Of a DNA stretch of 58,113 nt, positions 2,611-33,019 are shown piece by piece. The notes beneath the pieces were generated by a model. That model was not told the DNA's origin. It ran no database searches and saw nothing but the letters and a program-made list of their open reading frames with translations. The position numbers and the translations under genes are program-made. How positions within the stretch are numbered: the first letter of the stretch is position 1; each line of letters starts with the position of its first letter. This DNA is from Eubacteriales bacterium. GTDB taxonomy: Bacteria > Bacillota > Clostridia > Oscillospirales > CAG-272. The stretch covers positions 1-58,113 of the forward strand of contig JAZUAS010000046.1 of NCBI GenBank assembly GCA_045638125.1. Reading direction: 5' to 3'.

Positions 2611-2697
2611 TGGTGCGGGTAACAGGACTTGAACCTGCACGAAGGTAACCTCACTAGAACCTGAATCTAGCGCGTCTGCCAATTCCGCCATACCCGC
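2611..2697 (-). tRNA. tRNA-Leu (anticodon CAG), class II with long variable arm, CCA encoded
   Basis: The reverse complement is GCGGGTATGGCGGAATTGGCAGACGCGCTAGATTCAGGTTCTAGTGAGGTTACCTTCGTGCAGGTTCAAGTCCTGTTACCCGCACCA. It folds by hand into a cloverleaf with anticodon stem CTAGA/TCTAG, loop TTCAGGT and T-loop TTCAAGT. Confidence 0.9.
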
Positions 2698-2853: not shown

Positions 2854-2882
2854 ATTATACTATATAAAACAAATTTTGTCAA
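2854..2882 (-). promoter_or_regulatory. Sigma-70-type promoter for the tRNA-Leu transcription unit
   Basis: On the minus strand: TTGACA (2882-2877), 17-nt spacer, TATAAT (2859-2854). Confidence 0.6.
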
Positions 2883-2978: not shown

Positions 2979-3009
2979 TAAAAAAATCCCACCCCCAAAG
3001 GGGCGGGAT
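2979..3009 (-). terminator. Rho-independent terminator ending the SipW/TasA-like operon
   Basis: ATCCCACCCC-CAAA-GGGGCGGGAT hairpin (2986-3009). On the minus strand it is followed by a T7 run. Confidence 0.8.
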
Positions 3010-3025: not shown

Positions 3026-4255
3026 TTACTTAATTGTAATGCCGTTCAATCCGTTGTAGAAGAATGTAGTTTCACCATTGCCCAGAGCTGTGGCGTTCTC
3101 ATCAGTGATCAGAGTATCACCGTAGTAGCAGTTGATGAAGACGATGTCAGAGGTTTTGGAGGTGTCAAATTCATAGCCCTCCTCGAATACGCAGTTCTCA
3201 AATACGGATGCATTATAGGGACGGCAGAATGCATAACTATAGCTACCGGTACCCTGACCGAAGTTACAGTTAGTGAAGACAACTTCCTTGTGAACGTCGG
3301 AGTAGCTGGTCCAACCGTTCAGAGTGGAGTTGCTGATGTACACACCGTAATCCTTACTACCACCGTCGGAGTTGAAGGTGTAGCATACTTTGTCGATAAT
3401 AACGTTGTCGATGTATACGTCACCGGTTGCACTGCCCATAAAGATGCCGCGGAAAGTTCCGCTAACGGTTGCGTTTTTGATCGTACCATTCTTCATGTTA
3501 ACCGCGCAGTCCCAGGTGCCGTTAGCGTCGGACACGGTAATGGTGTTGCCGTTTCCGTTAAAAGTGGCACCGTTGTCAATCTGAATACCGGTAGCACCGT
3601 AGCCACTGTTTGCGGTGGTATCGTTAGCGCTGAAGTCAAGGTCTTCGTTTATGATGATGTCACCGCCGTTTTTGAGATCGTCAAGATCTGCAACTTCATC
3701 AATGAGAGTGTTTGTATCAACGTTGCCCTGGATAGCTTCAACTGTGTAAGAGAAGGAGCAAGAGGTAGACATATATTCGTTGCCTGCGCTCTCGGGAAGA
3801 GTAATAGATACGGGAACGATAATGTCAGCGGAGCCGGGAGCTGCAACAGCCCAAGCCGCTCTTACGGTATTGCCGTCATATTCGGTACCGTCGACGGTAA
3901 CCTCAAGACCGTTCCAAAGACCGTCGTCAGCTACCATAGCAATAATTGTTCTGTAGCTGATGCTTACGTTGCTAATGTTTTTGATTATGATATCAAAAGT
4001 AAGAACGTCACCGGGAACTATCTGTGTAAGAGTCACAGTGTTGTCTACAATTGTGTAAGCGGTTTCGGGAACGTTGTTGCCGAGGGTAGAGGAGATCTGA
4101 TCGTTTTTAACAGTTGCTATAACTTCTACGTTACCTGCGGTAACAGCTACGTTAACGGTGCTTTCGCTGGTGAAGAGTGCGAAGGATGCGCCTGCGATGA
4201 TACTGATGCAAAGCGCGATGGTCAAAATGGAGGACACTAAAATTTTGGTTTTCAT
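3026..4255 (-). CDS. Secreted protein: SipW-type signal peptide and TasA/camelysin-like N-domain fused to a right-handed beta-helix-like C-domain
   Basis: 409 aa. The N-terminus is MKTKILVSSILTIALCISIIAGASFALFTSESTVNVAVTAGNVEV (A-x-F-T...AG pattern of SipW-cognate signals). The first ~180 aa are near-identical to the neighbour at 4278-5981. The C-terminus is rich in short N/G/T-containing beta-helix-like repeats (NGNGNTITVSD, NGTIKNATVSG, VYIDNVIID). Confidence 0.65.
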   Translation of the reverse strand: MKTKILVSSILTIALCISIIAGASFALFTSESTVNVAVTAGNVEVIATVKNDQISSTLGNNVPETAYTIVDNTVTLTQIVPGDVLTFDIIIKNISNVSISYRTIIAMVADDGLWNGLEVTVDGTEYDGNTVRAAWAVAAPGSADIIVPVSITLPESAGNEYMSTSCSFSYTVEAIQGNVDTNTLIDEVADLDDLKNGGDIIINEDLDFSANDTTANSGYGATGIQIDNGATFNGNGNTITVSDANGTWDCAVNMKNGTIKNATVSGTFRGIFMGSATGDVYIDNVIIDKVCYTFNSDGGSKDYGVYISNSTLNGWTSYSDVHKEVVFTNCNFGQGTGSYSYAFCRPYNASVFENCVFEEGYEFDTSKTSDIVFINCYYGDTLITDENATALGNGETTFFYNGLNGITIK

Positions 4256-4277: not shown

Positions 4278-5981
4278 TTATTTGTTATTATAAATAACAG
4301 TTACGCCGTCATGGACAGGATTTCCGTAAACACCTTGACCGCCTCCGTAGAGCTGGTCAAATTCGCAAAGGATGAAGTGATCTTCGCCCTCGTTATGAAC
4401 GTGATTGTCGTCTACTACTTCATTTCCGTTTGCATCAGTAGGATGGCCGTATCTGGGGTTAGAGTAAGCAGAGTTGCTGACACCTGCCTGAACTCTTACG
4501 TAAGGCCAGCTTTTTCCTGCAAATTCGCAATAGGTGTAGTCAGCCCAATCACCGTAGATTACGGTTACGTTTTCGCATGTAAGCTGAGGAGCTGCTGCAA
4601 TAGTGTTTCCGTCTTCGGTGGTGGTTGTTTTTCCTGTGTTACCGATAAGCATACCGCATCTACGGTAAGCGTACCACTGGTAAGAAGAGGTTACGTCATT
4701 GTAAGCATCAATTCTACAGGCAACGGTACAATCTTTAATAAGGATTTCAGCGGTTGAGCCGCATCCGCCGATAATACCGCCGGTGGAGTTGTCAAAGTCG
4801 CCCCACTGAGCTGCAAGAGTAGTGCTTTCATCGACGATACAGTTGATAAACGTCTGTGTACCGCTTGCCCAACCTACGATGCCGCCTGCATAGTACTGAT
4901 AGTCAGCTCCTCTGGAGTTGCTTATAGTAATGTTTTCAAAAGTCGTTTCACCATACGAGCAACCTGCTATAATACCAACGATAGCAGATTCTCCGGAAAT
5001 ATTAGCATTGTCAATGTTGAGATTCTTTATGTGAGCATCTTCAACAAGGCCGAACAGACCCATTCCGAGATCGCCGTAGTAGTATCCGTTGTTGAGAGCC
5101 CAAGTGTTCTGATTCAGATTATAAATGGTGTGCCCCTGACCGTCAAAAGTGCCTGTGAATGCCTGATCGTTTCTGTAAGATCCGATAGGCTCGAAGCATA
5201 TAGGATCACCATTTTCATCTTCTGCATAGAGATCTACGTCGCTATCGAGCAAGAAGGTCTTTCCTTCCATAGTTATGGGAAGAGAAATTTCAACGTCAGC
5301 AGGAATGGGAGCGGTTCCGTCTATAAGAGCTGCAAGACCGGCGATCTGTTCTGCGGAAGAAAGTGTATATTCTGTTGCATCAGGATCGTCAAAGAACCAA
5401 TCGGCATCTATTGTTCCGTCCCACTCGTCCGGAATAGGAGCGTTACCCTGGAGAGCCTCTACGCTGTATGCAATACTACAAGTCTTGCTCATATACTCGT
5501 TACCTGCGTTTTCGGGAAGCGTGATGACAACGGGAACTATAATGTCAGCGGAGCCGGGAGCAGCTGTAGCCCAATCTGCTTTCTTGGTTGCGCCGTCATA
5601 CGCGACTCCGTCAATGGTAACCTCGAGACCGCTCCAAAGACCGTCGTCTGCAACCTTTTTGATAATAGTTCTGTAGTTGACGGTTACGTTGCTATTGTTC
5701 TTGATGACGATATCAAAGGAAACTGTATCACCGGGTACGATCTTGTCGAGGGTGATGGTGTTGTCGGTATCGTTGAAAGTAACGGAGGTCTCGGAAAGAT
5801 TTGTGCCGAGAGTGGAGTCGAGAATGACGTTTTCAACCGTAGCGATAACTTCAACATTACCCGCTGTAACGGCTACGTTAACGGTGCTTTCGCTGGTGAA
5901 GAGCGCGAAGGATGCGCCCGCGATGATGCTGATGCAAAGCGCGATGGTTAAAAGGGAAGAGACTAAAATTTTGGTTTTCAT
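4278..5981 (-). CDS. Secreted protein: SipW-type signal peptide and TasA/camelysin-like N-domain fused to a GLUG-like repeat C-domain
   Basis: 567 aa with the same N-terminal module as 3026-4255. The C-terminus has FTGTFDGQGHTIYNLN followed by GLFGLVE, GIIAGCS, GGIVGWASG and GGIIGGCG repeats typical of GLUG-motif adhesin or protease-like domains. Confidence 0.6.
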   Translation of the reverse strand: MKTKILVSSLLTIALCISIIAGASFALFTSESTVNVAVTAGNVEVIATVENVILDSTLGTNLSETSVTFNDTDNTITLDKIVPGDTVSFDIVIKNNSNVTVNYRTIIKKVADDGLWSGLEVTIDGVAYDGATKKADWATAAPGSADIIVPVVITLPENAGNEYMSKTCSIAYSVEALQGNAPIPDEWDGTIDADWFFDDPDATEYTLSSAEQIAGLAALIDGTAPIPADVEISLPITMEGKTFLLDSDVDLYAEDENGDPICFEPIGSYRNDQAFTGTFDGQGHTIYNLNQNTWALNNGYYYGDLGMGLFGLVEDAHIKNLNIDNANISGESAIVGIIAGCSYGETTFENITISNSRGADYQYYAGGIVGWASGTQTFINCIVDESTTLAAQWGDFDNSTGGIIGGCGSTAEILIKDCTVACRIDAYNDVTSSYQWYAYRRCGMLIGNTGKTTTTEDGNTIAAAPQLTCENVTVIYGDWADYTYCEFAGKSWPYVRVQAGVSNSAYSNPRYGHPTDANGNEVVDDNHVHNEGEDHFILCEFDQLYGGGQGVYGNPVHDGVTVIYNNK

Positions 5982-6090: not shown

Positions 6091-6747
6091 TCAATCTTGC
6101 ACAGTTTCTTGAACAGCCGTCACTACAAGGTCAAATACTGCGGATTGATTTTTTGCCAAATCGTTGTCGATTGGTATCTCACCCTCGGCAAGATTGGCAT
6201 TTGCCACAATATCGTCGATGAATTCAACCTTTACGCTAAAGCTTTGCGACGTTTCGGTAGCCTTCATGGTACCGGTAAAGATAGAGGCGCCGTCAACCAG
6301 TTCGCTCAGTTTCTTTGTGGTCGTTGTTCCGTCAAAATGTGTCACCGTTACTATCAACTGTTCGGTCAGATCATTGGAGTCACTGATCAAAGCTATTCCA
6401 ACGCTGTAATCGAACGCAACGTTTCCGTTGTTTCTAATTTCCATATCTGCATCGAAATAGCTACAGGGCGCAAACTTGACATTTTCCGACTTAATTCCGA
6501 ATACGTTTTCTTCAGTTGAGCCGGAGAAATCGTAGTCGTCTGTAATTGTTGTGACTTCGAGATTTCCTTCCTCGTTCAGAATACAGTATTCCAGATCGGT
6601 CCTTATCAAGCTGATCTCAAGCTCTCCTGAATCTAAATGATTGCTTGTGTTTATTACATTAGTAAACAAACCAAATGTAGCACCGGCAATAATAGCAATG
6701 CACAAGAGAATGATCGGAATAGCTATAAAAAGAGCCTTTTTGTTCAC
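6091..6747 (-). CDS. Stand-alone TasA/CalY (camelysin, M73)-like protein with SipW-type signal peptide
   Basis: GTG start at 6747 lies 7 nt after AGGAGG (the ORF-track start at 6798 lacks an RBS). Translation is VNKKALFIAIPIILLCIAIIAGATFGLFTNVINTSNHLDSGELEISL, about 218 aa, the size of TasA-fold fibre subunits. Confidence 0.6.
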   Translation of the reverse strand: MNKKALFIAIPIILLCIAIIAGATFGLFTNVINTSNHLDSGELEISLIRTDLEYCILNEEGNLEVTTITDDYDFSGSTEENVFGIKSENVKFAPCSYFDADMEIRNNGNVAFDYSVGIALISDSNDLTEQLIVTVTHFDGTTTTKKLSELVDGASIFTGTMKATETSQSFSVKVEFIDDIVANANLAEGEIPIDNDLAKNQSAVFDLVVTAVQETVQD

Positions 6748-6804
6748 TGTTTTTCCTCCTTTCACACGGAATATATATTGAAAAGTTGTGAAAATCACAA
6801 CCGA

Positions 6805-7611
6805 TCAATCGGTGTCAGTAGTGTCTTCTTCTGTAACAGTGTCTTCTTCTGTAATTGTGTCATCTTTAGGAGGTTCTTTGGATTTGACTTTTTCAAGCAT
6901 GGCGAGTTTGGAGCGAAGTTCTTTGATCTCATTGTCCTTTTTCTCGTCTTCTTCAAACTGACGTTTCTTTTTTTCGGCTTTGTACAATCCCACGATCTTT
7001 AATACCTCTAACAAAATAATGATGAGGCAGGGTACAATGACCACCAAAATAATTCCAAGCGTTGTTTTCAGTAAGCTTACGATGAATCCAAGTATATATG
7101 ACTGCCCCGTGACCTTGCCGATCACATAGTTTTTGTTGTTGGGAGTAGAGGTGTTTATAGACTGATAAAGCTGATCTGAGTTAGAGCTTTTATTGTCTCC
7201 GGCAAGCTCTATTGAATAACCGCCGACATTGTTCCTTTCTATATCGGTTATTCGGTGAGTGATAGTCACTTGATGAGTATAAACGTATTTGAAGGTGAGA
7301 ACGTCGCCAACCTTTAAGTCAGCATACCATTCATCAGCTTCCTGCGGGTCTTCGGGAACAAGTTCAATAAAGACCATTGACCTCACGGGAATACTTTTGA
7401 TATTGTAATCGGAAACGTCGGTCAACTCACATTTCTCCATTGAATCCGACGTGATGACACGCATTTGATATCCGCCAATCTCCACTGTTCCGTCGATATC
7501 TCTTTTGGAAAACGCAGTAATCAATACGGCTATAATGCAAAGAGATAGAAAGAAAAACAACAGTACGTTGAGGGCAATATTGCCGATCTTTTTAAGTTTG
7601 ACTTTCTCCAT
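6805..7611 (-). CDS. sipW: Signal peptidase I, SipW (ER/archaeal) type, with C-terminal TM segment and long charged tail
   Basis: VITSDSMEK aligns to SipW VLSGSMEP (catalytic Ser). VTITHRITDIE aligns to VTHRIVDI (catalytic His). LAGDNKSSN aligns to KGDNN. These are followed by a C-terminal TM and a K/E-rich tail ending in TEEDTV/TEEDTT repeats. Confidence 0.85.
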   Translation of the reverse strand: MEKVKLKKIGNIALNVLLFFFLSLCIIAVLITAFSKRDIDGTVEIGGYQMRVITSDSMEKCELTDVSDYNIKSIPVRSMVFIELVPEDPQEADEWYADLKVGDVLTFKYVYTHQVTITHRITDIERNNVGGYSIELAGDNKSSNSDQLYQSINTSTPNNKNYVIGKVTGQSYILGFIVSLLKTTLGIILVVIVPCLIIILLEVLKIVGLYKAEKKKRQFEEDEKKDNEIKELRSKLAMLEKVKSKEPPKDDTITEEDTVTEEDTTDTD

Positions 7612-7637: not shown

Positions 7638-7898
7638 CTATGATTTGTTTTTTGATTTAAAGAAATGAACGGTCAGATCTTTGCTGACAGAGCTTTTCTT
7701 TGCTTTCTGTCTGTCGCTGATAATACCGTGTATTTTCTTGTTTTGATTCTCAAGTTGATTTTCACATGCCCAGCAGATCATTCTCCCCTCAGAGACAACA
7801 GCTCCGCACGAAACACAAAAATCTGTATTATCAATAAATGTCATGTGCTTGTTGTTTAAAACTTGTAATACATCCATACTTTTCTTTGTCTTTTTCAT
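7638..7898 (-). CDS. Small zinc-ribbon protein (hypothetical), first gene of the operon
   Basis: 86 aa with CVSCG...16 residues...CWAC (a four-Cys ribbon) and a basic C-terminus. No family recognised. Confidence 0.45.
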   Translation of the reverse strand: MKKTKKSMDVLQVLNNKHMTFIDNTDFCVSCGAVVSEGRMICWACENQLENQNKKIHGIISDRQKAKKSSVSKDLTVHFFKSKNKS

Positions 7899-7976
7899 TG
7901 GCGTCTAATTGAGTGATTGAAACACGATTAATAATTGTCTTACGAACTCAACGCTATTTTCGTGCGCTTAATAATT

Positions 7977-8008
7977 AAAAGCAACATAACGAGAGTTATG
8001 TTGCTTTT
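7977..8008. repeat. Palindromic hairpin sharing a 19-nt core with the inverton repeats; bidirectional terminator-like
   Basis: AAAA-GCAACATAAC-GAGA-GTTATGTTGC-TTTT. Positions 7983-8001 are identical to 8016-8034. Confidence 0.6.
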
Positions 8009-8012
8009 AAAC

Positions 8013-8038
8013 AATAACATAACGAGAGTTATGTGATA
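8013..8038. repeat. Inverted repeat, left arm (IR-L) of candidate invertible element
   Basis: AATAACATAACGAGAGTTATGTGATA is the exact reverse complement of 8253-8278. It contains an internal 7-bp dyad ACATAAC/GTTATGT around the asymmetric spacer GAGA. Confidence 0.9.
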
Positions 8039-8094
8039 AACGGTGAAGTTTATTTTTCAAATCACTAAAATTAAAGGAAAAACAACAACACGGC

Positions 8095-8143
8095 AAAAAG
8101 CCTTTCGTCAATTTTTTAGAAAAATTATACGAAAGGCGTTTTT
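8095..8143. terminator. Terminator-like hairpin inside the invertible segment (insulator upstream of the promoter)
   Basis: AAAAA-GCCTTTCGT (8100-8108), 20-nt loop, ACGAAAGGC (8129-8137), GTTTTT. It has an A-run on one side and a T-run on the other. The large loop lowers confidence. Confidence 0.4.
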
Positions 8144-8189
8144 GGCGCGCAATAATTTATGTAATATGTTATGAAATTTTCGGAAAGAC

Positions 8190-8218
8190 TTGATTTTTTA
8201 ATTCGTTTATGGTATAAT
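8190..8218 (+). promoter_or_regulatory. Near-consensus sigma-70 promoter with extended -10 inside the invertible segment
   Basis: TTGATT (8190-8195), 17-nt spacer, TGg-TATAAT (8210-8218). In the assembled orientation it points into the 3' end of the recombinase gene (antisense). Confidence 0.65.
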
Positions 8219-8252
8219 TGATCTCACATCTTGATAAATATCAAATGACTAA

Positions 8253-8278
8253 TATCACATAACTCTCGTTATGTTATT
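8253..8278. repeat. Inverted repeat, right arm (IR-R) of candidate invertible element
   Basis: TATCACATAACTCTCGTTATGTTATT is the exact reverse complement of 8013-8038. Its spacer reads TCTC. Confidence 0.9.
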
Positions 8279-8313
8279 TTCATTCTCGGTGTATTCGCAT
8301 CGGGATTTTTTGT

Positions 8314-9156
8314 TTATATAATCAAACGCATGTGCTCCATTTTGCGCTTATGTTCCGCGCCAGTTGTAACAATATAAATACGCGTTGTGTTGATATTTGA
8401 ATGTCCGAGAATATCCGCAAGCTTGGCAATGTCCTTTTCAATTCCGTAAAAGGTGCGAGCAAACAGATGGCGCAGATTGTGAGGAAACACCTTACTCGAT
8501 GCAACCTGCGCCTGCTCACACAAGGATTTCATATCCTTCCATACATTGTTACGACTAATGGGTTTGCCATTTTTTGTAATAAATATCGCCCCTGAGGCTA
8601 TTTTCTGCTCCTTTACATAACGGAGTAGTTTTTTCTTTAGATTGGCAACAATAAAGATCTTTCGATTTTTGCCCTTGCATTTAACGACTGCCTCCCCCCT
8701 ACTTAGCGCTTCCACTGTTATATATTGGAGTTCACTCACGCGAATACCCGTTCCGCAGATCGTCTGAATGATAAGATTAAGCCGTTGATTGTGATTTTTG
8801 TTCGCTGCTTCAAGCAGACGGATATATTCTTCTCGCGTCAATTCCTTTTCTTCGGAGCAGTAAGCTTGCCTTTGTATGCGGAACTGCTTCACGCACAGAT
8901 CATGCCAACCGCAGAAACGCAGAAATGCGTTCAGTGCGGCAATCATAGAATTTGCACTGGTCACAGCGTAGGAATTTCCCAATTTTTGCTTATACTCCAT
9001 CACACTTTGTTTACAGACTTCATCCGTGCTGATAAAATTTGCAAAGCATCTTACGTCACGCATATATTTTTCAACCGTTGCTTGGCTCCGTTCTTCTTCT
9101 CTTAAATGAATTTCAAATTCTTGCATTTTGGAAAGATCTATAATCCTTTTATTCAT
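8314..9156 (-). CDS. Tyrosine site-specific recombinase (XerC/D / phage-integrase family), candidate invertase
   Basis: 280 aa. It has an N-terminal SAM-like core-binding domain (ATVEKYMRDVRCFANF) and a catalytic domain with GIRVSEL (Arg I), HNLRH (H-x-x-R) and LGHSNINTTRIY (His/Trp position and Tyr nucleophile). Confidence 0.85.
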   Translation of the reverse strand: MNKRIIDLSKMQEFEIHLREEERSQATVEKYMRDVRCFANFISTDEVCKQSVMEYKQKLGNSYAVTSANSMIAALNAFLRFCGWHDLCVKQFRIQRQAYCSEEKELTREEYIRLLEAANKNHNQRLNLIIQTICGTGIRVSELQYITVEALSRGEAVVKCKGKNRKIFIVANLKKKLLRYVKEQKIASGAIFITKNGKPISRNNVWKDMKSLCEQAQVASSKVFPHNLRHLFARTFYGIEKDIAKLADILGHSNINTTRIYIVTTGAEHKRKMEHMRLII

Positions 9157-9316
9157 AAAACACGCTCCTTATATTGGTTTTTGCTTTTATTATTTTACCA
9201 AATCTTTGCTAATAATACTTTAAAATTTTAACAAATATGGTCGTTAATCTGGAATTTTAAGAGAGATCGGATCATAGACGGAATAATATAGCAATAGCAC
9301 TTTTTTAGACAAGAAA

Positions 9317-9354: not shown

Positions 9355-12300
9355 TTATTCAGCTGTAATTGCGTCGCCCGTTTTGGGGTCGATCAACGTT
9401 GACTCTGTACGTCCTGTGGAAAGAGTAACCTTGCTCATATCGCTCTCAAGCTCGTAAATATCATCGAGATTATTGGAGAATCCGATGTAAGCGATGTCGA
9501 AATAGACGTCTTCATCGCACGCAAAGTTGAAGAAGTCAAAGCGGAAATATTTCGCCACATATACTCCATCCTCGTTCTTTGCGTAGGTGTCAAGCCCTCT
9601 CGCCTCAAGATCGATAATAAGTATCTGCCATTCGCCGTCGGCAATTACCTGAGTGCCTGCGCCCTCGCAGTTATAGCAGTTTGCGGAATTGCTCGCCGCG
9701 CCGCCGTCGGTATTAAGGTAGAACTGCCAATAGTAGAACATCTTGGGTATGTCAGCGGGAATACGATATTTCAAAACGAGATATCTGCCTGTTTCCTTGA
9801 AATTGTTACGGAAAAGCTCGATTCTTGTTTCTTCCTCCACAGAACCTGCCAAGCGGATGTAATCGCGCTCCTCGGAGAGGGTTACCGAGCCGAAGTGTAC
9901 CTTGCCACGTCCTATCATATCGTCAAGCTCTGCGGCGTCCATGTGGAAATTAAGCTCCTCGTTGTTGAGAGTGCTTCTGTACTCAAAGTGATAAGATTTT
10001 TCAAAGAGTGCAACGGTATTGAGGTCTTTGTTGTATTCGAGAATATCGTCGAGGGAATCGTGGTAACCGATGTAAGAAACGTCAATGTAAGCGTTGGGAT
10101 TGCCTGACTCGTTGAATACGTCGAAGCGGAGATATTTAGCGTAATAGTTTCCGTCCTCGCTCTTCTTGAAGCTATCGGTCTTGCCGTATGCCTCGAGGTC
10201 TATAACGATGGTGTGCCACTGTCCGTCCGAAAGAACGGCTGCATCTGCGATATAATCCTGACCAACTATGAGAATGTTGCCGTCAGCATCGTAAACCGTG
10301 TTTTCGGTGGAGGTGTAGAACTGCCAGTAGGTTATCATGGAGTCGAGACCCTGAGGAACGCGGAACTTAAACACAAAATATCTGCCTGCAAGAATACCTT
10401 CCTCGTCCTCGAACACGACCATGGTTGACTCCGCGTTCGTTCCGTTTCTGTTAACACGAACGAAGTTTACACCGTCCTCGGACATAATCGAGTATTCTCC
10501 GAATCTGCTTGCCGCGTATGTAAAGGAGGCGTTGAGATCCTGGGGATCAAACCAAGCGTTAAAGGGATCGGGCTCTTCTATTATCTCGGGCCAGCCCTCA
10601 AAATCCTCAGCCGCGGTCACGCGGAACTTTCTCGGGGCACCGTTATCCATTGTTGTGATGAATGAGTAAGAGAATGTGCCGTCGCCGTCGTAGTAGACAC
10701 CGTATCCGTCGTACTGATGGCCGTATCCGAAGTTATCGGGAGTGCTGAGGGAAGAGATGTCTACAAGCTTCCATTCGCCGTCAACGTATTCTTCGATAAC
10801 GGGTGCAGTCAGCTTTTCAAAGCCATAAATTCTAACAGCTACGTTGTTGTGACCGCCCGAAAGAGTAAATTCTGCACTCTTGCCGTTGGTAGTCTTGACC
10901 TTGGGGAGGAATACGCTATCCATGATCGTGCAATCCTTATCAGCGGTTGCCTTCAAGGGATCAAGCAGGGTGTTTTCTCTGACTCTGCGAACGTTTTTGT
11001 CGGGCTCTACCTCATCGTATTCCTCGTAGCACTGCCACGGCATGATGATCGCGTTGATTGTGAAAGTGTCGCCTTTCTTAAGCTCTACCGCATCAAGGTC
11101 AAGGGAGAGAGAAAGCTCGGCAAAGTTGTTGATGAGGAGGAAAGAGGGATTGATCTTGTCGCCGCCGATCGTGAACTCGGCATTGTAGATCATAAAGGAG
11201 AGATTGTTATATCCTCTTGCCGCATCTCCGCAGTTTTCCATATCAAAGAAAGAGAAGTAGGGGCATTCGTCACCGAGAACGTATTCAAAGCTCTGGTCAC
11301 GGTCGGCTGCCTTTACAACCTTGGACTCGTTGTTAGTGTCAAGATAGCCAACCTTGGTGTAGAGTCCGCTGTAGTCAAGAGATTTTACCGAGTAGAAGGA
11401 GAAATCGTGTCCGAAATCGGTGAAGCTGATGTCTTCAAGAACCTCATACTTCATTTCGTAGTATGCACGGTTTTCATCGGTCTGTGGGAACTCCATATGA
11501 TTGTACGAAACCTTGATCTTACCGTCGTCGGAGATGAAATCCATGGTAACGTCGGCATAGATAGGACCGTAAGAGCCAATCCTATCGAGGATGTTCTCGG
11601 TTGCCGAATAGTTTCCGTCAGCATCGGTGTACTGCAAGAAGGAGTGAACGCCTGCGTAGGTACGCTGACAAACGTTAAACTGAACGGGACCCGACATAGG
11701 ACGGTGATCGGGGAGCATATTGAGTGTCTCGCCAAATCTGCAGAAATAGTAGGGAATAATACAGTTACTCTCGTGAACTCCGGTTGAAAGATGGTAGTAA
11801 GGAGCGTAATACTGGATCCAGGAGATCTGCTTCAAGGGATATTTACCCCAGTTGTAGTAAAGATTGAGTATGGAGTAGGTGTTGTCGGTGTCAGAGTTGA
11901 CTATCATAGGAAGGATAGTTTCGCTATACGGAGCGTCACCCTCATAGAACATGGGAGAGTCGCCGCCCTCACCGTAGTTCTTGCCGACTTCAATAGGTAT
12001 AGGGAGCATCATCTGATTTCCGTCAAGAAGCGCGGCGGTTTCAAGCGCGCCACCGCCTGTATAACTGGTCAGAATGTATATCTTGCGGTCGTTTGCGCCG
12101 TCACCCTTAATGTTCAAGGTGATGCTGAAATGTCTGTTAGGATAGAACAAATACGGACGAGAAAATCCTGCGTCGCCGTCGATGCTAAAGGTATAGCAGC
12201 CTCGGAGAGCATTGTAGCCTATGAACCCTCCACCGGGAGATGTCTTGGTATCAATAATGAAGTTTTCTTCACCGAGAGGATTGACCTCAAGCTCTGCCTC

Positions 12301-13797
12301 GACTATAAAGCGATCAAAGGTGTGGTAACGGTCGGTGTAGATTCGGTGACCCATATAGAAGTCGTTTGCGTTATTGGTGCCCTTGGGAGAGGTGCGGAGA
12401 GTCTGACCGTCGGGAGCCTTGGACTGTTCTATCTTATAGACACCGTCTTCAAGGGTTACGCGGATCGTTCCGCTCAAGCCGTCGTAGGGAAGAATGTAAC
12501 CGTAGATACCTACGCCCTTGATGTCAAATCCGACGTACTGAACGGTGTTCCAAGCAATACCCTTAAGGTCGTAGTGCAGACCGTTTCTATCCTTTATAAC
12601 GAAGCCACCTACACGGCTTTCTGGAATTTCGGTGATCATACCCACTGCCTGAACGTTTTCAACGTCGCGGAGTGTGGTTACTTGTAGAGTTTGATGAAGC
12701 TTGTCGGAGTATGTGTTGAACATACGGTTGAGGTAAACTTCCTTAGTGGGGGTAGCGTTAAGGTCTGCTTTAAGCACGCGGAGATCCTTGATAGCAAAGG
12801 TAGCGTCGATAGCGCCCTGCATAGGCAGAAAGTCAAAACGAAGTCCCGTTACTTGTCCAAAGTATCCGCTAATTTGGTAAAGCGGTATGTAATATGTATG
12901 GAATTCTCCGTCGGGGATTATTTCAACACCTAACGACTGAGCACTTGAAAAACCGGTGTTAGCTCCTGCCGTGATATATACGACAAAGCTTGAGGAGAAG
13001 TTTGAGTCGGCTTTCATGGTGAGCGATAGAACGTTATACTCGGATGCCGAGAAATTGACTTTCTTATAGGATATCCAGGGGTCTTGGTTGTTGGTGGCTT
13101 TGATAGCAATAGCGCCGTCCTCAACTCCGATATATTCAGTCATGTTGTATCTGAGGATGTTGTTTGCACCGAAGTTGAGCTTTTTACCCTTTTCGTCTTC
13201 AAATACGTAACCGTTACCGAAGTTTAAGCCCTCGATGCGGTTTTCGTAAAAGTAGTAGCCCATACGGAAGATATTTGCGATGCCGTCCGCTTGGGAATCA
13301 GACGCATAGTAGGTAGTGCCATCGGTCATACGGACGAAAACGTCCATAGTATTTTCTATGTAGTTGGCACCTGCCTTGTTGTCGATCGAGGTGATCAGCT
13401 TGGTGTTTTGAAGATCGCATGTCACGCCAACGTTCTTGTTTTCAAAGAAATAAGAGGATCTTGTGGGATCAGTAAAGTATGCGTTGACTCCGTTTGCGAT
13501 GCGGTCTGCATACTCGATATACTCGGCATTTTCGCCCTCGAGGAGGGAAGGATAGGTCTCCTCAACGTATCCGTCGTCGGGATCAGAGGTGCTTTCCTCG
13601 GACTCGTCGCCGCTTTCTGTGCTTGAAGACTCTTGATTATTGGAAGATTCTTCGTTGCCTGACGAACTTCCGCTCTCGGATGAGCTTTCGGTCTCTGTCT
13701 CGGAGTCGCCGAAAAGCCACGCGCAGGACGAAAGAACACTCGCGAACATTATCAAAGCGATAAGTAGTGATAAGATTCGTATGCATTTGATTTTCAT
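9355..13797 (-). CDS. Giant surface lipoprotein, unrecognised family (paralog 1), with two C-terminal ~150-aa repeat modules
   Basis: 1480 aa. The signal peptide has a lipobox-like LSSC (MKIKCIRILSLLIALIMFASVLSSC), followed by an S/E/D-rich linker, then a large conserved body. It ends with two modules of pattern GRYLV(L/F)K(Y/F)R(I/V)P..YWQFY...DG(E/Q)W..(L/I)(I/V)IDLEA......Y(V/Y)AKY(F/L)RFD(F/V)FN. Confidence 0.75.
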   Translation of the reverse strand: MKIKCIRILSLLIALIMFASVLSSCAWLFGDSETETESSSESGSSSGNEESSNNQESSSTESGDESEESTSDPDDGYVEETYPSLLEGENAEYIEYADRIANGVNAYFTDPTRSSYFFENKNVGVTCDLQNTKLITSIDNKAGANYIENTMDVFVRMTDGTTYYASDSQADGIANIFRMGYYFYENRIEGLNFGNGYVFEDEKGKKLNFGANNILRYNMTEYIGVEDGAIAIKATNNQDPWISYKKVNFSASEYNVLSLTMKADSNFSSSFVVYITAGANTGFSSAQSLGVEIIPDGEFHTYYIPLYQISGYFGQVTGLRFDFLPMQGAIDATFAIKDLRVLKADLNATPTKEVYLNRMFNTYSDKLHQTLQVTTLRDVENVQAVGMITEIPESRVGGFVIKDRNGLHYDLKGIAWNTVQYVGFDIKGVGIYGYILPYDGLSGTIRVTLEDGVYKIEQSKAPDGQTLRTSPKGTNNANDFYMGHRIYTDRYHTFDRFIVEAELEVNPLGEENFIIDTKTSPGGGFIGYNALRGCYTFSIDGDAGFSRPYLFYPNRHFSITLNIKGDGANDRKIYILTSYTGGGALETAALLDGNQMMLPIPIEVGKNYGEGGDSPMFYEGDAPYSETILPMIVNSDTDNTYSILNLYYNWGKYPLKQISWIQYYAPYYHLSTGVHESNCIIPYYFCRFGETLNMLPDHRPMSGPVQFNVCQRTYAGVHSFLQYTDADGNYSATENILDRIGSYGPIYADVTMDFISDDGKIKVSYNHMEFPQTDENRAYYEMKYEVLEDISFTDFGHDFSFYSVKSLDYSGLYTKVGYLDTNNESKVVKAADRDQSFEYVLGDECPYFSFFDMENCGDAARGYNNLSFMIYNAEFTIGGDKINPSFLLINNFAELSLSLDLDAVELKKGDTFTINAIIMPWQCYEEYDEVEPDKNVRRVRENTLLDPLKATADKDCTIMDSVFLPKVKTTNGKSAEFTLSGGHNNVAVRIYGFEKLTAPVIEEYVDGEWKLVDISSLSTPDNFGYGHQYDGYGVYYDGDGTFSYSFITTMDNGAPRKFRVTAAEDFEGWPEIIEEPDPFNAWFDPQDLNASFTYAASRFGEYSIMSEDGVNFVRVNRNGTNAESTMVVFEDEEGILAGRYFVFKFRVPQGLDSMITYWQFYTSTENTVYDADGNILIVGQDYIADAAVLSDGQWHTIVIDLEAYGKTDSFKKSEDGNYYAKYLRFDVFNESGNPNAYIDVSYIGYHDSLDDILEYNKDLNTVALFEKSYHFEYRSTLNNEELNFHMDAAELDDMIGRGKVHFGSVTLSEERDYIRLAGSVEEETRIELFRNNFKETGRYLVLKYRIPADIPKMFYYWQFYLNTDGGAASNSANCYNCEGAGTQVIADGEWQILIIDLEARGLDTYAKNEDGVYVAKYFRFDFFNFACDEDVYFDIAYIGFSNNLDDIYELESDMSKVTLSTGRTESTLIDPKTGDAITAE

Positions 13798-14048: not shown

Positions 14049-17000
14049 TTATTCAGCCGTGATCTCATTACCCGTTTTGGGGTCGATCTTGGTGGATTCC
14101 TTTTGCGCTGAGGAAAGGGTAACGTAGCTCATATCTGCTTCGTACTCGTAAATATCCTCAAGACTGTTGCCAAACGCTATATACGCTACGTCGTAGGAGA
14201 CGTCCGCGCTAAATTGAGAGTTGAAGAAATCAAATCTGAAAAATTTTGCTATGTACCTTTCGTCGTCGTTCTTGACGTAGGTGTCAAGTCCTCTCGCTTC
14301 AAGGTCAACGATAAGTACCTGCCATTCGCCGTCGGCAATTACATGAGTGCCGTATCCCTCGCAGGAATAAGCGTTTGAGCTGCCTGCCGCGCCGCCGTCG
14401 GTGTTAAGGTAGAACTGCCAGTAACCGAAGGGAGGTTGATCCGCCTTGGGAATACGGTATTTCAGCACGAGATAGCGTCCGGTTTCACGGAGAGCGTTCT
14501 TGAAAAATTCTACGGTCGCTTCGTTGCCTGTGCATCCTGAAAGGGTGATGTAATCACCGTTTTCTGAAAGGGTAACAGAATGGAATTTTGACTTGCTGGG
14601 AGTGATCGCTGTGTTAAGCTTTTCTGCGTCATAAACGCAATTAAAAACAGGATTGGGTGTGTTGTCGCCATCGGTCGTATCATCACCATCGGTAGTGTTG
14701 TCACCACCGGTAGTATCATCACCGCCGGTAGTATTGTCGCCACCGGTAGTATCGTCACCGCCGGTTGTATCACCAACTATCTCACTACCCGTTTTGGGAT
14801 CGATCTTAGTAGATTCCTTCTGCGCCGTGGAGAGAGTAACGTAGCTCATATCTGCTTCGTATTCGTAAATATCCTTGATATCGTTGGAGAAACCGATATA
14901 GGCTATATCGTAGCTGACCTCCGCGCCAAATTGAGAGTTGAAGAAGTCGAAGCGGAAATATTTCGCGACGTATTTACCGTCTTCGTTCTTGGCGTAGGTG
15001 CTGAGCCCTCTCGCCTCAAGGTCAACGATAAGCACCTGCCATTCGCCGTCGGCAATTACCTGAGTACCGACTCCCTCACAGCTATAGGCGTTCTCTCCCG
15101 AAGCCTTGCCGCCGTCAGTATTAAGGTAGAACTGCCAATAGCCAAGCTTTCCGGGGTTATCTTCGGGGATACGGTATTTCAGAATGAGATAGCGTCCCGT
15201 TTCCTTGGTATTATTATGTAAAAGCTCAACGATAGCCTCGCTGCCCACAGAGCCTGCGAAAGTGATGTAATTACGGTCGCCGGAGAGGGTTACCGAATGG
15301 AATCTGCCCTTGTAGTAATCAACTATAGCATCAAGCTCGCCGGCATCAAAGTGAAGATTCAGCGCCTCGTTGTTCTTGGTGCTTACGTGATTGAGGGTAT
15401 TGTTTGTAAAGAGCGCAACGGTAGGCATATCCGTCTTGTTGTATTCAAGAATCTCGTCAAGAGAATCGTGCATGCCTACGTATGCAACATCGATTATCGC
15501 GTCAGTTGCGTATTCCGGATTGAATACGTCAAAACGGAGATATTTGATATAATAGTTGCCGTCCTCGTCCTGCTTGTAGCATTCGGTTCTGTTTGCGTAG
15601 GATGCGAGGTCGATGACAATAACGTGCCAGTCTCCGTCCGAGAGGTTGGGAGCCGAGGCATTGAAGTCCTGACCGACTATAAGAATGTTGCCGTCAGCGT
15701 CATACATCGTGTTTTCGGTGGAGGTGTAGAACTGCCATGTGCCGATCTTTGCGGCTGAGCCCTGAGGAACTCTGAACTTGTAGACCAAATATCTTCCTGC
15801 CAAAGCGCCCTCTGCGTCCTCAAACAGGGCGAGAGTCGCCTCGGTGTTCTTGCCGTTACGGTTGACACGGATGAAGTTTATTCCGTTCTCGGACATCATA
15901 GAGAACTCGCCGAATCTTGCCGCCGATACGGTGAATTTTGCATTCAGATCCTGAGGATCCATCCAGAAATTCATAGGATCGGGTTCTTTGATGATTTCGG
16001 GCCAGCCCTCAAAATCCTCGGCTGCACTCACGCGGAATTTTCTATCAGCACCGTTGTCCATTGTTGTAATAAATGAGTAGGAGTATGTTCCGTCGCTGTC
16101 GTAGTAGACGCCGTAGCCGTCGTACTGATAGCCGTAGCCGAATGCGTCGGGAGTGCTGAGCGACGAGAGGTCAACAAGCTTCCATTCGCCGTCAACGTAT
16201 TCTTCAACGACGGGAACGGTTAACTTCTCAAAACCGTAAATTCTGACTGCCACGTTGTTGTGACCGCCCGAAAGGGTGAACTCTGCGCTTTTGCCGTTAG
16301 TGGTCTTTACCTTGGGCAAAAAGACGCTCTCGATGATCTCGCAGTCCTTGTCTGCAGTTGCCTTCAAGGGGTCAAGCAGAGTGTTTTCACGAACTCTGCG
16401 AACGTTCTTGTCGGGTTCTGCCACGTCGTACTCGTCGTAGTACTGCCAAGGCATGATGATCGCGTTGATGGTGAAGGTGTCGCCCTTCTTCAGCTCTACC
16501 GCCTCAAGATCGAGGGAGAGAGAAAGCTCGGCGAAGTTGTTAACAAGCAGGAAAGAGGGAGTGACCTTTTCGCCGCCCATTGTAAACTCGGCATTATAGA
16601 TCAAGAAGGAAAGGTTGTTGTAGCCTCTTGCCGTGTCGCCGCAGTTTGTCATATCGAAGAAGGAGAAGTAGGGGCAATTATTGCCGAGAACGTATTCGAA
16701 GCTCTCGCCACGTCCCGCCGCGGTGGCAACCTGCGACGCATTGTTTGTATCAAGGTAACCGACCTTTGAGTACAGACCGCTGGGGTCGAGTGATTTTACC
16801 GAATAGAAGGAGAAATCACGTCCGAAATCGGCGAAGCTGATGTCCTCAAGAACCTCATACTTCATTTCGTAGTAAGCGCGGTTCTCGTCGGTCTGGGGGA
16901 ACTCCATATGATTGTAGGAAACCTTTATTTTACCGTCATCGGATATGAAATCCATAGTAACGTCAGCGTAGATAGGACCGTAAGAGCCTATGGTGTCGAG

Positions 17001-19229: not shown

Positions 19230-19268
19230 AAACTGAAATCCTTTCAAAATTGTTTTTGCTATGAATCA

Positions 19269-22777: not shown

Positions 22778-22779
22778 AT

Positions 22780-23796
22780 TTACTTTCCTTGCGCCATAGC
22801 GAGGCATTCTTCAAACAAAATTTCGTGCATACGCATGATTTCTTCGTATGTTCGGGGTGTGCCGACGGGATCGTCGAGTATGCCCTCGTTGCTCTCATAG
22901 CATGCCGAAACTGCACCGCAGACGTGGTGAGTTGCACTGATGAGATTGAATGACAGAGGATTTTCGCCCGAGGGGATTCCGGGTATTGCTCCACGGAAGA
23001 ATTCAAGTCCTTCATTGTCACCAACTCTTTGGCAACGCTGATAAAGCTCGTCGATAGCGAGTGAGCATTCTTTTGTTACGTAGTCGGTGGGGAGCATACC
23101 GCCCTTTATATTTCCACCGCCGTGCAAATTGAGTACAAAATCGGCGCATTCGTCCTCGCAAATGTCGAGTATCGCCTGCGTTTCACGAGCCTTTGGGTGG
23201 AAGAAGTTGTCGTGCATAAGGTTTATGCCGTCATCATTGTAGTAGCCGCCGAGAAAGCCTGCCGCGTCCTTTATGGGATGGATCTTTTTACAGTCGGGCC
23301 ATCCGCAAAGCGAGCCGTCTGCCCAAGTGCCTTGACCCCAATAGCGGAACTCCTCAAAGCTTTTGCCTATCATCGAATCGGGCTTGACTCTTGCGCGTCC
23401 GTCGGGATTGGCAATGGGAACTATGACTAAACGGACGCCTTTTACGAGCGAAAGCAGCTTTTCGTTGGTCTTTCCCATAAGGTCGACTCCGGTTTCGAGG
23501 AGGGAGATCAGATTTGTGATCGCCGCAACGCCCTCGGTCTCCTGTCCGTGGACTGCACCTATAAGTATAACGCAGGGCTTTTGTCCCCTGGGCGAAAAGC
23601 AACCCTTATCTCTGCCGCCGAGAGCGGAGGAGTAGTTTGCGGTGCCGTGAGCTTTTTTTTCGCCGTAAGCCAGCATATATACGGGTCGGTCGCCCGCGCT
23701 TTGGCATAAAATGCGCTTTTCCGAGCAGTTTTTGGCATTCGTATAAATGTCCTTGATGTATTCAAGATCTGTTTTCCAGAAATCGGGAATAAACAT
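22780..23796 (-). CDS. M14 metallocarboxypeptidase-like protein (zinc carboxypeptidase fold), cytoplasmic
   Basis: 338 aa. It has IGAVHGQETEG (H-x-x-E zinc motif), ANPDGR and LNLHGGG (second His region). There is no signal peptide. Confidence 0.55.
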   Translation of the reverse strand: MFIPDFWKTDLEYIKDIYTNAKNCSEKRILCQSAGDRPVYMLAYGEKKAHGTANYSSALGGRDKGCFSPRGQKPCVILIGAVHGQETEGVAAITNLISLLETGVDLMGKTNEKLLSLVKGVRLVIVPIANPDGRARVKPDSMIGKSFEEFRYWGQGTWADGSLCGWPDCKKIHPIKDAAGFLGGYYNDDGINLMHDNFFHPKARETQAILDICEDECADFVLNLHGGGNIKGGMLPTDYVTKECSLAIDELYQRCQRVGDNEGLEFFRGAIPGIPSGENPLSFNLISATHHVCGAVSACYESNEGILDDPVGTPRTYEEIMRMHEILFEECLAMAQGK

Positions 23797-31915: not shown

Positions 31916-33019
31916 ATGAATTATATAAAGATGATGAATGCTTACTTTGGCTTTTATAATTATATGCGAAAAAAAGCTATTAAACGCTCTGATAGATATA
32001 ACTGTATGCAACGTTTGAGTGCTGAGGCTACGAAACTTACCAAAGAGCAAGAAAAAAAGATCAAAGACTTTTGGGCTCCGTATGAGAACGTTACTACCAT
32101 ATTTCATCAGATGTACTATGAAAAAACCGGTGTTTTTTCCGAAAAGTACATTCCAATAGATGTTTACACTAATGTCATTGACGAGTATTTTAATCCCAGA
32201 AATGAAGGCAAATATATTGATAACAAATGTTATTATAATGCTTTTTTCGGAAAAATCAGACAGCCTGAATTTGCGGTGTTGCGAAGTGGTGGTTTTTGGT
32301 ACAACGAACAGATGCAAATGGTAAATGAAGAAGATGTTGCCAATATAGTAGCAAATGAAAACGAACTTTTCGTAAAGGTCGCAACTGAATCTTATGGTGG
32401 AAAAGGCGTAAAATACATAAATAAAGACAACAACATCGTCGAAGAATTTTTTGATTTTGTTAAAAAAACAAATTGTGATATAATTGCGCAAAGAGCTGTT
32501 AAGCAGCATAAGGATATTGCGGCAGTAAACGAAAGCTCTGTGAATACCGTAAGAATGATATCACTGCTCTCCAAAGATGGTCCCAAAATTTACTCCAGTA
32601 TCTTCCGAGTTGGTATGAAAGGGAAAAAAGTTGATAACTACACCAGTGGTGGACTTACTGTTGGAATCAACGAAAACGGTTTACTTAATAAGTATGCTTA
32701 TAACGATAAAGGAGAACGCTTTGATAAGCATCCTTCTAATGGATTTGTGTTTGAAGGATATGAAATTCCCGGATATAAAAAAGCGAGAGAGCTTGTTATG
32801 AAGGCACATCCTATGATCCCTCATTTTAGATTGGTTTCTTTTGATGTTGCAATTGACGAGAATGGTGAACCGATATTTATAGAAGCAAATCTTTGTAAGG
32901 GTTCAGTTGAAATTCACGAGTTCAACAATGGTCCACTTTTTGGAGAAGACACTAAAATGGTTCTCGATGAAGTCTACGGTATTAAGGATAAAAATATTGA
33001 GGGGTCAGCTAAATTATGA
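31916..33019 (+). CDS. ATP-grasp protein, sugar-transfer-associated type (ATPgrasp_ST/TupA-like), paralog A
   Basis: ATG 31916 follows AAAGGAAG. It has LFVKVATESYGGKGV, TVRMISL and a C-terminal PIFIEANLCKGS (E-x-N). It is collinear with 33016-34086. Confidence 0.6.
   Translation: MNYIKMMNAYFGFYNYMRKKAIKRSDRYNCMQRLSAEATKLTKEQEKKIKDFWAPYENVTTIFHQMYYEKTGVFSEKYIPIDVYTNVIDEYFNPRNEGKYIDNKCYYNAFFGKIRQPEFAVLRSGGFWYNEQMQMVNEEDVANIVANENELFVKVATESYGGKGVKYINKDNNIVEEFFDFVKKTNCDIIAQRAVKQHKDIAAVNESSVNTVRMISLLSKDGPKIYSSIFRVGMKGKKVDNYTSGGLTVGINENGLLNKYAYNDKGERFDKHPSNGFVFEGYEIPGYKKARELVMKAHPMIPHFRLVSFDVAIDENGEPIFIEANLCKGSVEIHEFNNGPLFGEDTKMVLDEVYGIKDKNIEGSAKL

Follow-up and report, generated by a model that had tools for sequence, protein, structure and literature searches.

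A probable promoter-inversion switch with tandem crossover sites in front of a SipW/TasA-like operon of gut Clostridia

In E. coli, the promoter of a surface-fibre operon resides on fimS, a 314-bp invertible DNA segment, and the tyrosine invertases FimB and FimE are encoded adjacent to it. The tyrosine recombinase RecV of C. difficile governs phase variation of cwpV, flgB and cmrRST through short invertible segments positioned upstream of surface and motility operons, and invertible promoters of capsule and fimbrial loci, connected with the recombinases Mpi and Tsr, have been found at scale in Bacteroides with PhaseFinder. Bacillus biofilms have a protein scaffold of TasA-type fibres, to which archaeal bundling pili are related; in B. 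subtilis populations TasA expression is heterogeneous, and this heterogeneity is brought about by the SinI/SinR/SlrR circuit. A 2025 study of the hCom2 gut community (PMC11892184) assigned 33 invertons from 17 Clostridia strains, nearly all of them beside a tyrosine-type recombinase gene, to inverton group 139/invertase group 35; in the examples given, repeats of 26 or 14 bp enclose 205 or 227 bp, and one of these invertons shifts orientation on mucin carriers. Here we describe a related arrangement on a 58,113-nt contig (JAZUAS010000046.1, assembly GCA_045638125.1) of an Eubacteriales bacterium of the CAG-272 lineage, the whole of which we refer to as the window. We consider it very likely that this locus is a phase-variation switch in which a recombinase inverts a promoter segment controlling an operon for TasA-like fibres. 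The switch and its adjoining recombinase gene comprise the following features (positions refer to the window).

7968..8017, no strand: outer distal (third) crossover site with core 7984-8001; from the junction in L002 and the 2+1 arrangement in L005
8013..8038, no strand: inner distal crossover site (inverted repeat IR-L) with core 8017-8034; repeat and core search
8095..8142, no strand: predicted bidirectional intrinsic terminator within the segment, AAAAAGCCTTTCG...CGAAAGGCGTTTTT; inverted-repeat search and folding
8190..8218, plus strand: candidate invertible promoter TTGATT-17-TGgTATAAT with an extended -10; consensus scan, 10/12; as assembled aimed at the 3' end of the recombinase gene
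8227..8247, plus strand: small palindrome just 3' of the -10, CATCTTGATA..TATCAAATG; weak in the window (dG -2.6, z -0.15)
8253..8278, no strand: recombinase-proximal crossover site (inverted repeat IR-R) with core 8257-8274, ACATAAC-TCTC-GTTATGT on the plus strand; repeat and core search
8284..8315, plus strand: predicted outer intrinsic terminator, oriented toward the switch, with hairpin 8284-8305 and then TTTTTTGTTT; terminator scan
8314..9156, minus strand: 280-aa Xer-like tyrosine recombinase, presumed invertase; Pfam Phage_integrase 2.8e-27 and Phage_int_SAM_1 6.2e-8
9285..9312, minus strand: candidate promoter of the recombinase gene, TTGTCT-16-TATATT with a TG; consensus scan

The first-pass annotation of this DNA had proposed a perfect 26-bp inverted repeat with an asymmetric 4-nt spacer, enclosing 214 bp free of open reading frames (ORFs). 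Both arms (8013-8038 and 8253-8278) are indeed 26 nt long and 100% complementary, each consisting of ACATAAC-GAGA-GTTATGT plus four extra matched bases per side, and within the 214 nt between them no ORF of 50 aa or more was detected; the locus thus has the short non-coding segment between inverted repeats that is typical of an inverton. Among repeat pairs up to 1.5 kb apart, no other pair in the 58-kb window is equally long and perfect. An inverted repeat at 32131-32258 was considered as a second inverton and discarded, since it is intragenic and only 79% complementary. The original two-site picture had the arms right but overlooked a third copy of the 18-nt core at 7984-8001, which is oriented directly relative to the copy at 8017-8034, lies 33 bp away from it, and is embedded in a longer palindrome (7968-8017; 23-nt arms). 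Three core copies compare with 0.04 expected in the window, and none of 100 shuffled sequences reached this number. With three crossover sites, four isomers of the locus are possible.

Inversion was assessed on contigs from independent assemblies, grouped into sets that encode exactly one recombinase protein each; the assembly index held no exact match to the recombinase of the window, and close homologues were therefore used. Between identical-recombinase contigs of opposite orientation, the segment is 98.6-100% identical when one copy is flipped and 56-66% identical when it is not, while the flanks are 99-100% identical. Both orientations of the segment in otherwise identical DNA were found in four contig sets (L005 vs. 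L004, L072 vs. L073, L082 vs. L085, and L076 vs. L068/69/75). For the recombinase P0002, which is 92% identical to that of the window, the segment of L005 is flipped relative to L004 and L006, and both orientations likewise occur with the recombinases P0090 and P0017. The boundaries of the flipped segments fall precisely at the core sites. In-silico inversion of the window, with crossover at 8257-8274 and 7984-8001, predicts a junction of 75 nt that is present exactly in L002, a contig from a strain with a 99%-identical recombinase, where the proximal site is followed by the reverse complement of the 15-nt spacer and by a second site. Since this junction exists and L005 carries a 2+1 arrangement of sites, the outer site at 7984-8001 is a used crossover point. 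L001, which belongs to the lineage of the window, possesses one distal site only. The inverton that had been predicted from the window alone is thereby borne out by natural isomers.

At least 13 contigs end inside the switch or less than 200 bp from it, as is expected because populations of mixed orientation should break assemblies at this position. Two apparent cases were set aside. L015 and L039, from one metagenome-assembled genome (MAG), looked like two orientations within a single sample, but single-nucleotide polymorphisms at the 3' end of the recombinase gene assign them to different strains or loci; the distal end of L004 (3602-3630) was not used because this contig is an assembly chimera: at 1.7x coverage it turns back on itself at the repeats and continues as the reverse-complemented recombinase-proximal flank.

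The layout of the switch is conserved in more than 70 loci of animal-gut Clostridia, comprising 33 species-representative genomes and about 40 metagenome contigs. The species-level scan covered one genome per species, and its 33 loci are all from MAGs of animal-gut Clostridia (Eubacteriales, Oscillospiraceae, Acutalibacteraceae, Monoglobaceae and Ca. Flemingiibacterium), whose source was mostly faecal material, including that of sheep and deer. The order is constant: the stop codon of the recombinase gene is followed, after about 31-59 bp, by one to three tandem cores, a segment of 221-245 bp, and one or two inverted sites. Read by its signals, this order is recombinase gene, switch-facing terminator, one to three phased cores, bidirectional terminator, TTGATT/TGnTATAAT promoter and inverted sites. 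The promoter points toward the operon in 19 loci and toward the recombinase gene in 20, and all four isomers of a three-site locus (1+2 or 2+1 sites, with the promoter facing either way) were encountered. The central spacer of the core varies by lineage (GAGA, AGGA, GGGA, AAGA or GCGA) and is identical in all partner sites of a given locus; in the five lineages in which it is altered, the change is common to all partner sites. Such co-variation is what a tyrosine-recombinase overlap region should show if strand exchange depends on homology there. Additional core copies (e.g., window 7984-8034, L018:8878-8957 and L034:6313-6414) bring the number of sites to between two and four even among near-identical strains. 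In 20 of 23 distinct cases the tandem sites are spaced by 30-33 bp, and otherwise by 42 or 63 bp, values that correspond to whole helical turns; this phasing suggests an architectural role of the tandem sites besides crossover. Searching JGI metagenome contigs for the 18-nt core returned 27 stretches, of which five belong to this switch family (L041, L052, L054, L055 and L060) and four more are low-GC contigs (L044, L045, L057 and L066), the remainder resembling chance matches, many of them in high-GC soil contigs; this search yielded no evidence for extra core sites away from the recombinase gene.

These data bear on the best-surviving of the other explanations, namely that the inversions are real but rare, historical and fixed per strain, so that one is looking at a polymorphism instead of a fast, reversible switch. 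All orientation differences lie between samples, and all eight contigs of the mobile-element relative (L088-L094, complete, and L095, cut) show one orientation or are uninformative, as this explanation would have it. Yet both orientations recur in many independent lineages with flanks that are 99-100% identical, they are split near 50:50 (19 vs. 20), and contigs repeatedly break at the switch. Moreover, the recombinase, the sites and the identity of the spacers are intact across lineages whose recombinases are only 47-57% identical to that of the window, and therefore recombination appears to be under continuing selection. We regard a fixed polymorphism as improbable.

The segment contains the signals that a switch of this kind would need. 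The promoter claimed by the first-pass annotation at 8190-8218 was recovered (10 of 12 consensus positions), and across 24 aligned segments both its -35 TTGATT and its TGnTATAAT are near-invariant. It always lies near one end of the segment, at a distance of 37-39 nt (49 nt in one locus), and this candidate promoter would face the regulated genes in one orientation only. In this alignment, with the promoter read forward, the hairpin, an AT-rich tract and the palindrome behind the -10 are conserved as well, besides the cores and the promoter itself. One related locus (L026:6998-7359; JAZRUP010000004.1) has a 318-bp segment with two outward-facing promoters, one near each end; here the operon would have a promoter facing it whichever way the segment lies, though not the same one.

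The terminator-like hairpin noted earlier is also real in terms of predicted structure. It occupies 8095-8142 and folds with -23.8 kcal/mol on the plus strand (z -5.3) and -27.6 kcal/mol on the minus strand (z -6.3), with an A-run preceding and a T-run trailing the AAAAAGCCTTTCG...CGAAAGGCGTTTTT stem; because it is very stable on both strands, it should terminate transcription both ways. It is highly conserved, and a GC-to-AT pair change in L014 and L019 is compensatory. The outer hairpin (dG -10.9 kcal/mol, z -4.6) sits between the switch and the stop codon of the recombinase gene, oriented against transcripts leaving the switch, and it is kept together with its T-run, including compensatory changes, in nearly all related loci examined. 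The stem letters of the small palindrome at 8227-8247 vary among relatives while the pairing is kept (e.g., GTATCTGA/TCGGATAC and GTATCAA/TTGATAC), and it could act as an operator or form a stem-loop at the 5' end of the ON transcript. All these hairpins were judged by eye and by single-sequence folding, since RNAalifold missed them on slices of the alignment owing to gaps. Between the switch and the first operon gene (7899-7980), where the first-pass annotation had seen no convincing operon promoter, our consensus scan detected no promoter-like site on the minus strand either.

We picture the switch as follows. The recombinase would pair the proximal core (8257-8274) with one of the oppositely oriented cores at 8017-8034 or 7984-8001, and crossover would invert the segment that bears the bidirectional terminator and the extended -10 promoter. 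As assembled, the promoter aims at the recombinase gene; its transcripts would be halted at 8284-8305, read-through from the recombinase gene would be halted at the internal terminator (8142-8095), and the operon (7898->3026) would be OFF. After inversion the terminator would adjoin the recombinase gene and the promoter would fire into the operon, corresponding to the ON state. In either orientation the internal terminator would lie between the recombinase gene and the operon, where it would block read-through. The product of the ON state would be a TasA-like surface fibre that is made by only part of the population. The ON/OFF inversion model advanced at the outset thus appears essentially right, with the promoter and both terminators conserved at the positions where an insulated switch needs them. 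That the promoter fires antisense into the recombinase gene was correct as to its plus-strand direction, but its transcripts are probably stopped by the conserved terminator at 8284-8305. The doubt about which state is ON, raised on account of a weaker minus-strand promoter (8152-8124), can be settled at the level of the sequence for the TTGATT/TGgTATAAT promoter, since the weaker candidate failed the scan (TTGCGC, 3/6) and its -10 lies inside the hairpin and is not conserved in relatives. We accordingly read the window as having been assembled in what looks like the OFF state.

It might be argued that the segment inverts but that the fibre operon is not its main target, either because the promoter serves antisense control of the recombinase gene or because the operon is transcribed from a promoter that is independent of segment orientation. 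The convergence of the as-assembled promoter with the recombinase gene, the promoter-like matches within the operon and the weak candidate at 8152-8124 can be cited for this. However, a conserved terminator directed at the switch occupies exactly the interval that separates the switch from the stop codon of the recombinase gene, the weak candidate lacks a conserved -10, and genes co-oriented with the recombinase gene always follow the switch; most close relatives have genes of the SipW/TasA type there, and distant relatives have different surface or defence cargo. This alternative strikes us as slightly less probable still than a fixed polymorphism. Much less credit is due to the notion that the apparent flips are assembly artefacts of the inverted repeats, even though the fold-back of L004 at 1.7x coverage demonstrates that such errors arise. 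At 26 nt, or about 51 nt where a tandem copy is included, the repeats do not reach the length of the final k-mers used in assembly (contig names of the k141_ MEGAHIT and SPAdes NODE types), and therefore the junctions presumably had to be read through; in addition, the flips stem from independent samples and assemblers and display the exact redistribution of tandem sites that is expected from crossover at the cores.

The first-pass annotation had placed a 280-aa tyrosine recombinase gene beside the repeat, and we find this gene, a member of the Phage_integrase family, at 9156-8314 on the minus strand, with its stop codon 35 nt from IR-R. The protein carries an N-terminal SAM-like domain and the catalytic motifs of its family, R139 (GIRVSEL), K161/K163 (KGKNRK), H226 and R229 (HNLRH), H252 (GHS) and Y261 (RIY); its best solved relative is XerA (4a8e, 3.9e-21), and the annotated invertase PsrA is a 31%-identical relative. 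It reaches the cut-off neither of the FimB/FimE models (NCBIfam tyrosine-type DNA invertase, NF007370 and NF007371; 35.4 and 28.7 bits vs. 221 and 222) nor of the Xer equivalogs (XerA_Arch 145.9/220, XerD 122.4/329.6 and XerC 117.2/335). It is Xer-like in fold only and not an invertase of the FimB/FimE type. Homologues are very abundant (8000 candidates at E<=1e-30), and in the related loci the gene always ends about 31-59 bp upstream of the first core site. The promoter candidate at 9285-9312 is positioned just downstream of the terminator (9346-9318) of the preceding 1480-aa gene. That the sites are instead attachment or dif-like dimer-resolution sites of a mobile-element Xer protein or integrase, with no expression switch, is hardly credible: although the recombinase scores best on Xer models and relatives adjoin HTH_3, resolvase-like, TnpV, ParB and relaxase genes, the Xer scores are all far below their cut-offs (e.g., XerD 122 vs. 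330), the sites are inverted around a conserved promoter and terminator, the natural products observed are inversions and not excisions or integrations, and the neighbours in the window are chromosomal-looking surface-protein genes.

Read along the minus strand, the 1480-aa gene and its terminator are followed by the recombinase gene, the switch, five genes for products of 86, 268, 235, 567 and 409 aa, and a terminator. The operon has these parts.

7638..7898, minus strand: first gene, 86-aa zinc-ribbon protein; Pfam DZR_2 0.0017, sub-threshold
6805..7611, minus strand: 268-aa signal peptidase I of the SipW-like (ER/archaeal) type; NCBIfam SipW 6.9e-14 and sigpep_I_arch 1.6e-8, neither reaching its cut-off
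6091..6798, minus strand: 235-aa TasA/camelysin-family protein with a SipW-type signal peptide; profile, homologue and fold matches
4278..5981, minus strand: 567-aa protein with a TasA-like N-terminal domain and a 375-aa C-terminal extension; TIGR04088 17.2 bits vs. 19
3026..4255, minus strand: 409-aa paralogue of the 567-aa protein; N-terminal domains 71-75% identical
2986..3009, minus strand: strong predicted intrinsic terminator at the operon end; 10-bp stem with 7 GC pairs, then TTTTTTAATT

The homologous 82-aa gene product of relatives matches DZR_2 at 9e-7. For the signal peptidase, a profile built from 15 relatives matches human SEC11A/C at 3.8e-15, and neither Ser57 nor His119 varies, so that homology to the SEC11/SipW family is apparent; with 51.8 bits against the cut-off of 190 for the NCBIfam SipW equivalog, the 268-aa protein is best viewed as a member of the SipW-type family and not as an orthologue. 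The 235-aa protein is probably 218 aa long in reality, with its start at 6747. A fibre-protein profile from 14 relatives matches B. subtilis TasA (5of1/8aur) at 7e-5, with almost full-length coverage, and archaeal AbpX at 4.6e-4, and Pfam Peptidase_M73 matches (E<=0.01, best 3e-8) 23 of the 28 members of an alignment of the 235-aa protein with 44-66% identical homologues. Its AF2 model (pLDDT 80.9) has the TasA fibre 8aur as the top fold in the PDB (probability 0.99, with a TM score of only 0.37). A TasA-like fold is thus combined with a SipW-type signal peptide, for which the cognate model TIGR04088 (cognate_SipW) scores 17-18 bits on the window proteins against a cut-off of 19. Taken singly, the window proteins score 17.4-19.5 bits with Peptidase_M73 (threshold 22.5), at the N-terminus only, or do not match, and neither a phmmer search of the PDB with the 235-aa protein nor Pfam scans of the lone window proteins yielded anything significant. 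Because profiles and homologues match where the single proteins miss the thresholds, the label SipW/TasA-like, with which the operon had been introduced, seems justified at the family level.

The 567-aa protein likewise has a SipW-type signal peptide, and it matches Peptidase_M73 at its N-terminus only (17.4 bits) and Peptidase_M26_N at its C-terminus (0.0012). The C-terminal domains of the two paralogues, of 375 and 217 aa, are unrelated, and one of them weakly resembles the N-terminal region of M26 IgA1 proteases. Judged from their sequences, the 567-aa and 409-aa proteins resemble fibre subunits that differ in their tip or adhesin module. A 204-aa TetR-like regulator is encoded directly behind the switch in most relatives (TetR_N 24.8 bits vs. 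24; L019:9342-9956, L067:4376-4990). Their operons also possess, between the signal peptidase and TasA-like genes, a gene for a small membrane protein whose C-terminus matches Ribosomal_L27A (uL15-like; 1.3e-14; L019:11569-12096, L067:6597 onwards), an odd domain for this setting; this gene is absent from the window.

Several observations count against the proposed switch or against parts of it. The orientation differences come from assembled contigs, sample against sample. The adjacent recombinase is inferred to be the catalyst of inversion from its position next to the sites, and the function ascribed to the promoter and the terminators is inferred from consensus matches and conservation. 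Promoter-like sites are present inside the operon (e.g., 5146-5118), although they are no commoner than in shuffled sequences. The TetR-like first gene of most relatives is missing from the window (7899-7983), in which the operon opens with the zinc-ribbon gene, and regulation in the window may consequently differ from that in relatives. Finally, the palindrome of the outer site might attenuate expression of the inner-site ON isomer, whose leader would contain two sites including the outer palindrome with its 16-bp stem and then a U-rich tract (predicted dG -38.8 kcal/mol); the leader of the outer-site ON isomer would contain one weak hairpin (predicted dG -19.9). The extended outer palindrome is specific to the lineage of the window. 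Speculatively, the two ON isomers might differ in output.

From this one may go a step further, to a proposal that we offer tentatively and hold to be rather doubtful: the cassette might be a multi-site device in which two to four identical sites, about three helical turns apart, give a single recombinase several isomers that differ in promoter direction and set graded states (OFF, attenuated ON and full ON fibre expression) via the number of site hairpins in the leader, and which would have been reused for SLH-domain surface proteins, exopolysaccharide, dockerin and restriction or defence genes across gut Clostridia and mobile elements. The order of recombinase gene, terminator, site, promoter and inverted site recurs, with diverged cores and other cargo, among the more distant relatives. 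With a 56%-identical recombinase and diverged cores, L035:8845-9174 precedes an exopolysaccharide-like cluster, and in L087 the same cassette, again with diverged cores, stands before a gene for a dockerin/Big_3 protein. In L088-L094 (e.g., L088:7843-8165; recombinase 62% identical) the cargo comprises an Eco57I-like methyltransferase and a T5orf172/ResIII helicase, within an element that has ParB, relaxase, NikA, ALP_N and TnpV genes, so that defence genes on mobile elements may be phase-variable too. Related switches are also present in two cultured isolates: in Monoglobus pectinilyticus (L096:7832-8127, NZ_OY725740.1; recombinase 52% identical) the perfect repeat ACATAATTTTGATTATGTTGTA is 22 nt long and its arms enclose 252 nt, and in Pusillibacter faecalis MM59 (L097:7839-8158, NZ_AP023421.1; 48% identical) a 26-nt repeat with an additional tandem copy precedes a gene for a 1500-aa protein with S-layer homology (SLH) domains.

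With respect to the surroundings of the switch, the ORFs upstream of the recombinase gene (9355-13797 and 14049-19247, both on the minus strand) encode proteins of 1480 and 1732 aa with no Pfam domain; a homologue of the former, 67-83% identical, also precedes the recombinase gene in the closest relatives (L001-L004 and L006), but not in others. A gene for tRNA-Leu(CAG) (2611-2697, minus strand) is located just downstream of the operon terminator and is preceded by a perfect TTGACA-17-TATAAT (2854-2882, minus strand). Near 20483-22807 (minus strand) there are genes for a polysaccharide lyase of family 8 and an AraC regulator, and a long co-directional cluster at 28841-55805 (plus strand) encodes a DegT-type aminotransferase, ATP-grasp enzymes and a fused nucleotidyltransferase/PEP mutase, a gene content that suggests a phosphonate-decorated glycan.

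The arrangement adds TasA-like fibres to the phase-variable surface structures and offers a marker of fibre expression that could be read from the sequence in metagenomes. Uncultured Clostridia of the animal gut appear to gain by a DNA flip what Bacillus gains by a regulatory circuit, namely heterogeneity of the population. As a compact, insulated cassette whose near-consensus promoter is flanked by terminators and which is conserved across many lineages and cargoes, it lends itself as a tractable inverton model for Firmicutes and possibly as a part for synthetic biology; the switch of the Monoglobus or of the Pusillibacter isolate could serve as the experimental model.

How does this locus compare with the systems described before? 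Its mechanism is already known, being that of the invertible promoters of the fimS, RecV or Bacteroides type. New are the SipW-type peptidase and TasA-family cargo, the tandem, helically phased crossover sites and the insulation by two terminators. The pairing with TasA-like proteins, which had been put forward as novel, does look undescribed: our literature search found no match for SipW with invertible, for inverton with TasA, or for the core sequence, and TasA with phase-variable retrieved only incidental co-mentions. The class of switch, in contrast, is widespread in Clostridia and has probably been catalogued before, as inverton group 139. In repeat dimensions and the adjacent tyrosine recombinase, which are the basis of this comparison, the two agree, the motif itself being printed only in a figure of that study; the regulated genes, terminators and tandem sites of group 139 are not described there (PMC11892184). 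A homologue search from a 56%-identical relative, made to test the identity with group 139, retrieved none of the named isolates (e.g., Intestinimonas and Clostridium sp. D5).

Like fimS, the locus combines a short promoter segment for a surface-fibre operon with inverted repeats and an adjacent recombinase gene. It differs from fimS in its full-length Xer-like recombinase with a SAM-like domain, its core repeats of 18-26 nt (9 bp in fimS), its two to four sites (two in fimS), the terminators that insulate both sides, and its TasA-type cargo in place of chaperone-usher pili. With RecV it shares a tyrosine recombinase, short invertible segments before surface operons and a Clostridial host; however, the recV gene is distant from most of its targets and serves several switches, whereas here the recombinase gene is always adjacent and sites were seen only beside it in the data examined, and cwpV is controlled via a leader terminator and not by movement of a promoter. 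The Bacteroides systems resemble it as promoter-in-segment ON/OFF control of surface structures in gut commensals (PMC11892184), but they belong to another phylum and differ in their recombinases (the serine enzyme Mpi; tyrosine recombinases of 'cluster 3b'), repeat motifs and promoter type. The R64 shufflon (Rci) and the hsdS loci of type I restriction-modification systems (PsrA/CreX) have in common with it more than two sites, both orientations, a single tyrosine recombinase and several isomers; those systems shuffle coding segments, while here the tandem extras alter only the position of the site and the content of the 5' leader. Finally, as in the tapA-sipW-tasA operon of B. subtilis, an ER-type signal peptidase is encoded together with TasA-family proteins that bear the cognate signal peptide. 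In the locus of the window, large C-terminal extensions are present on two of the three TasA-like proteins, and a homologue of TapA was not found; where B. subtilis derives its heterogeneity from the SinI/SinR/SlrR circuit, these gut Clostridia would derive theirs from DNA inversion.

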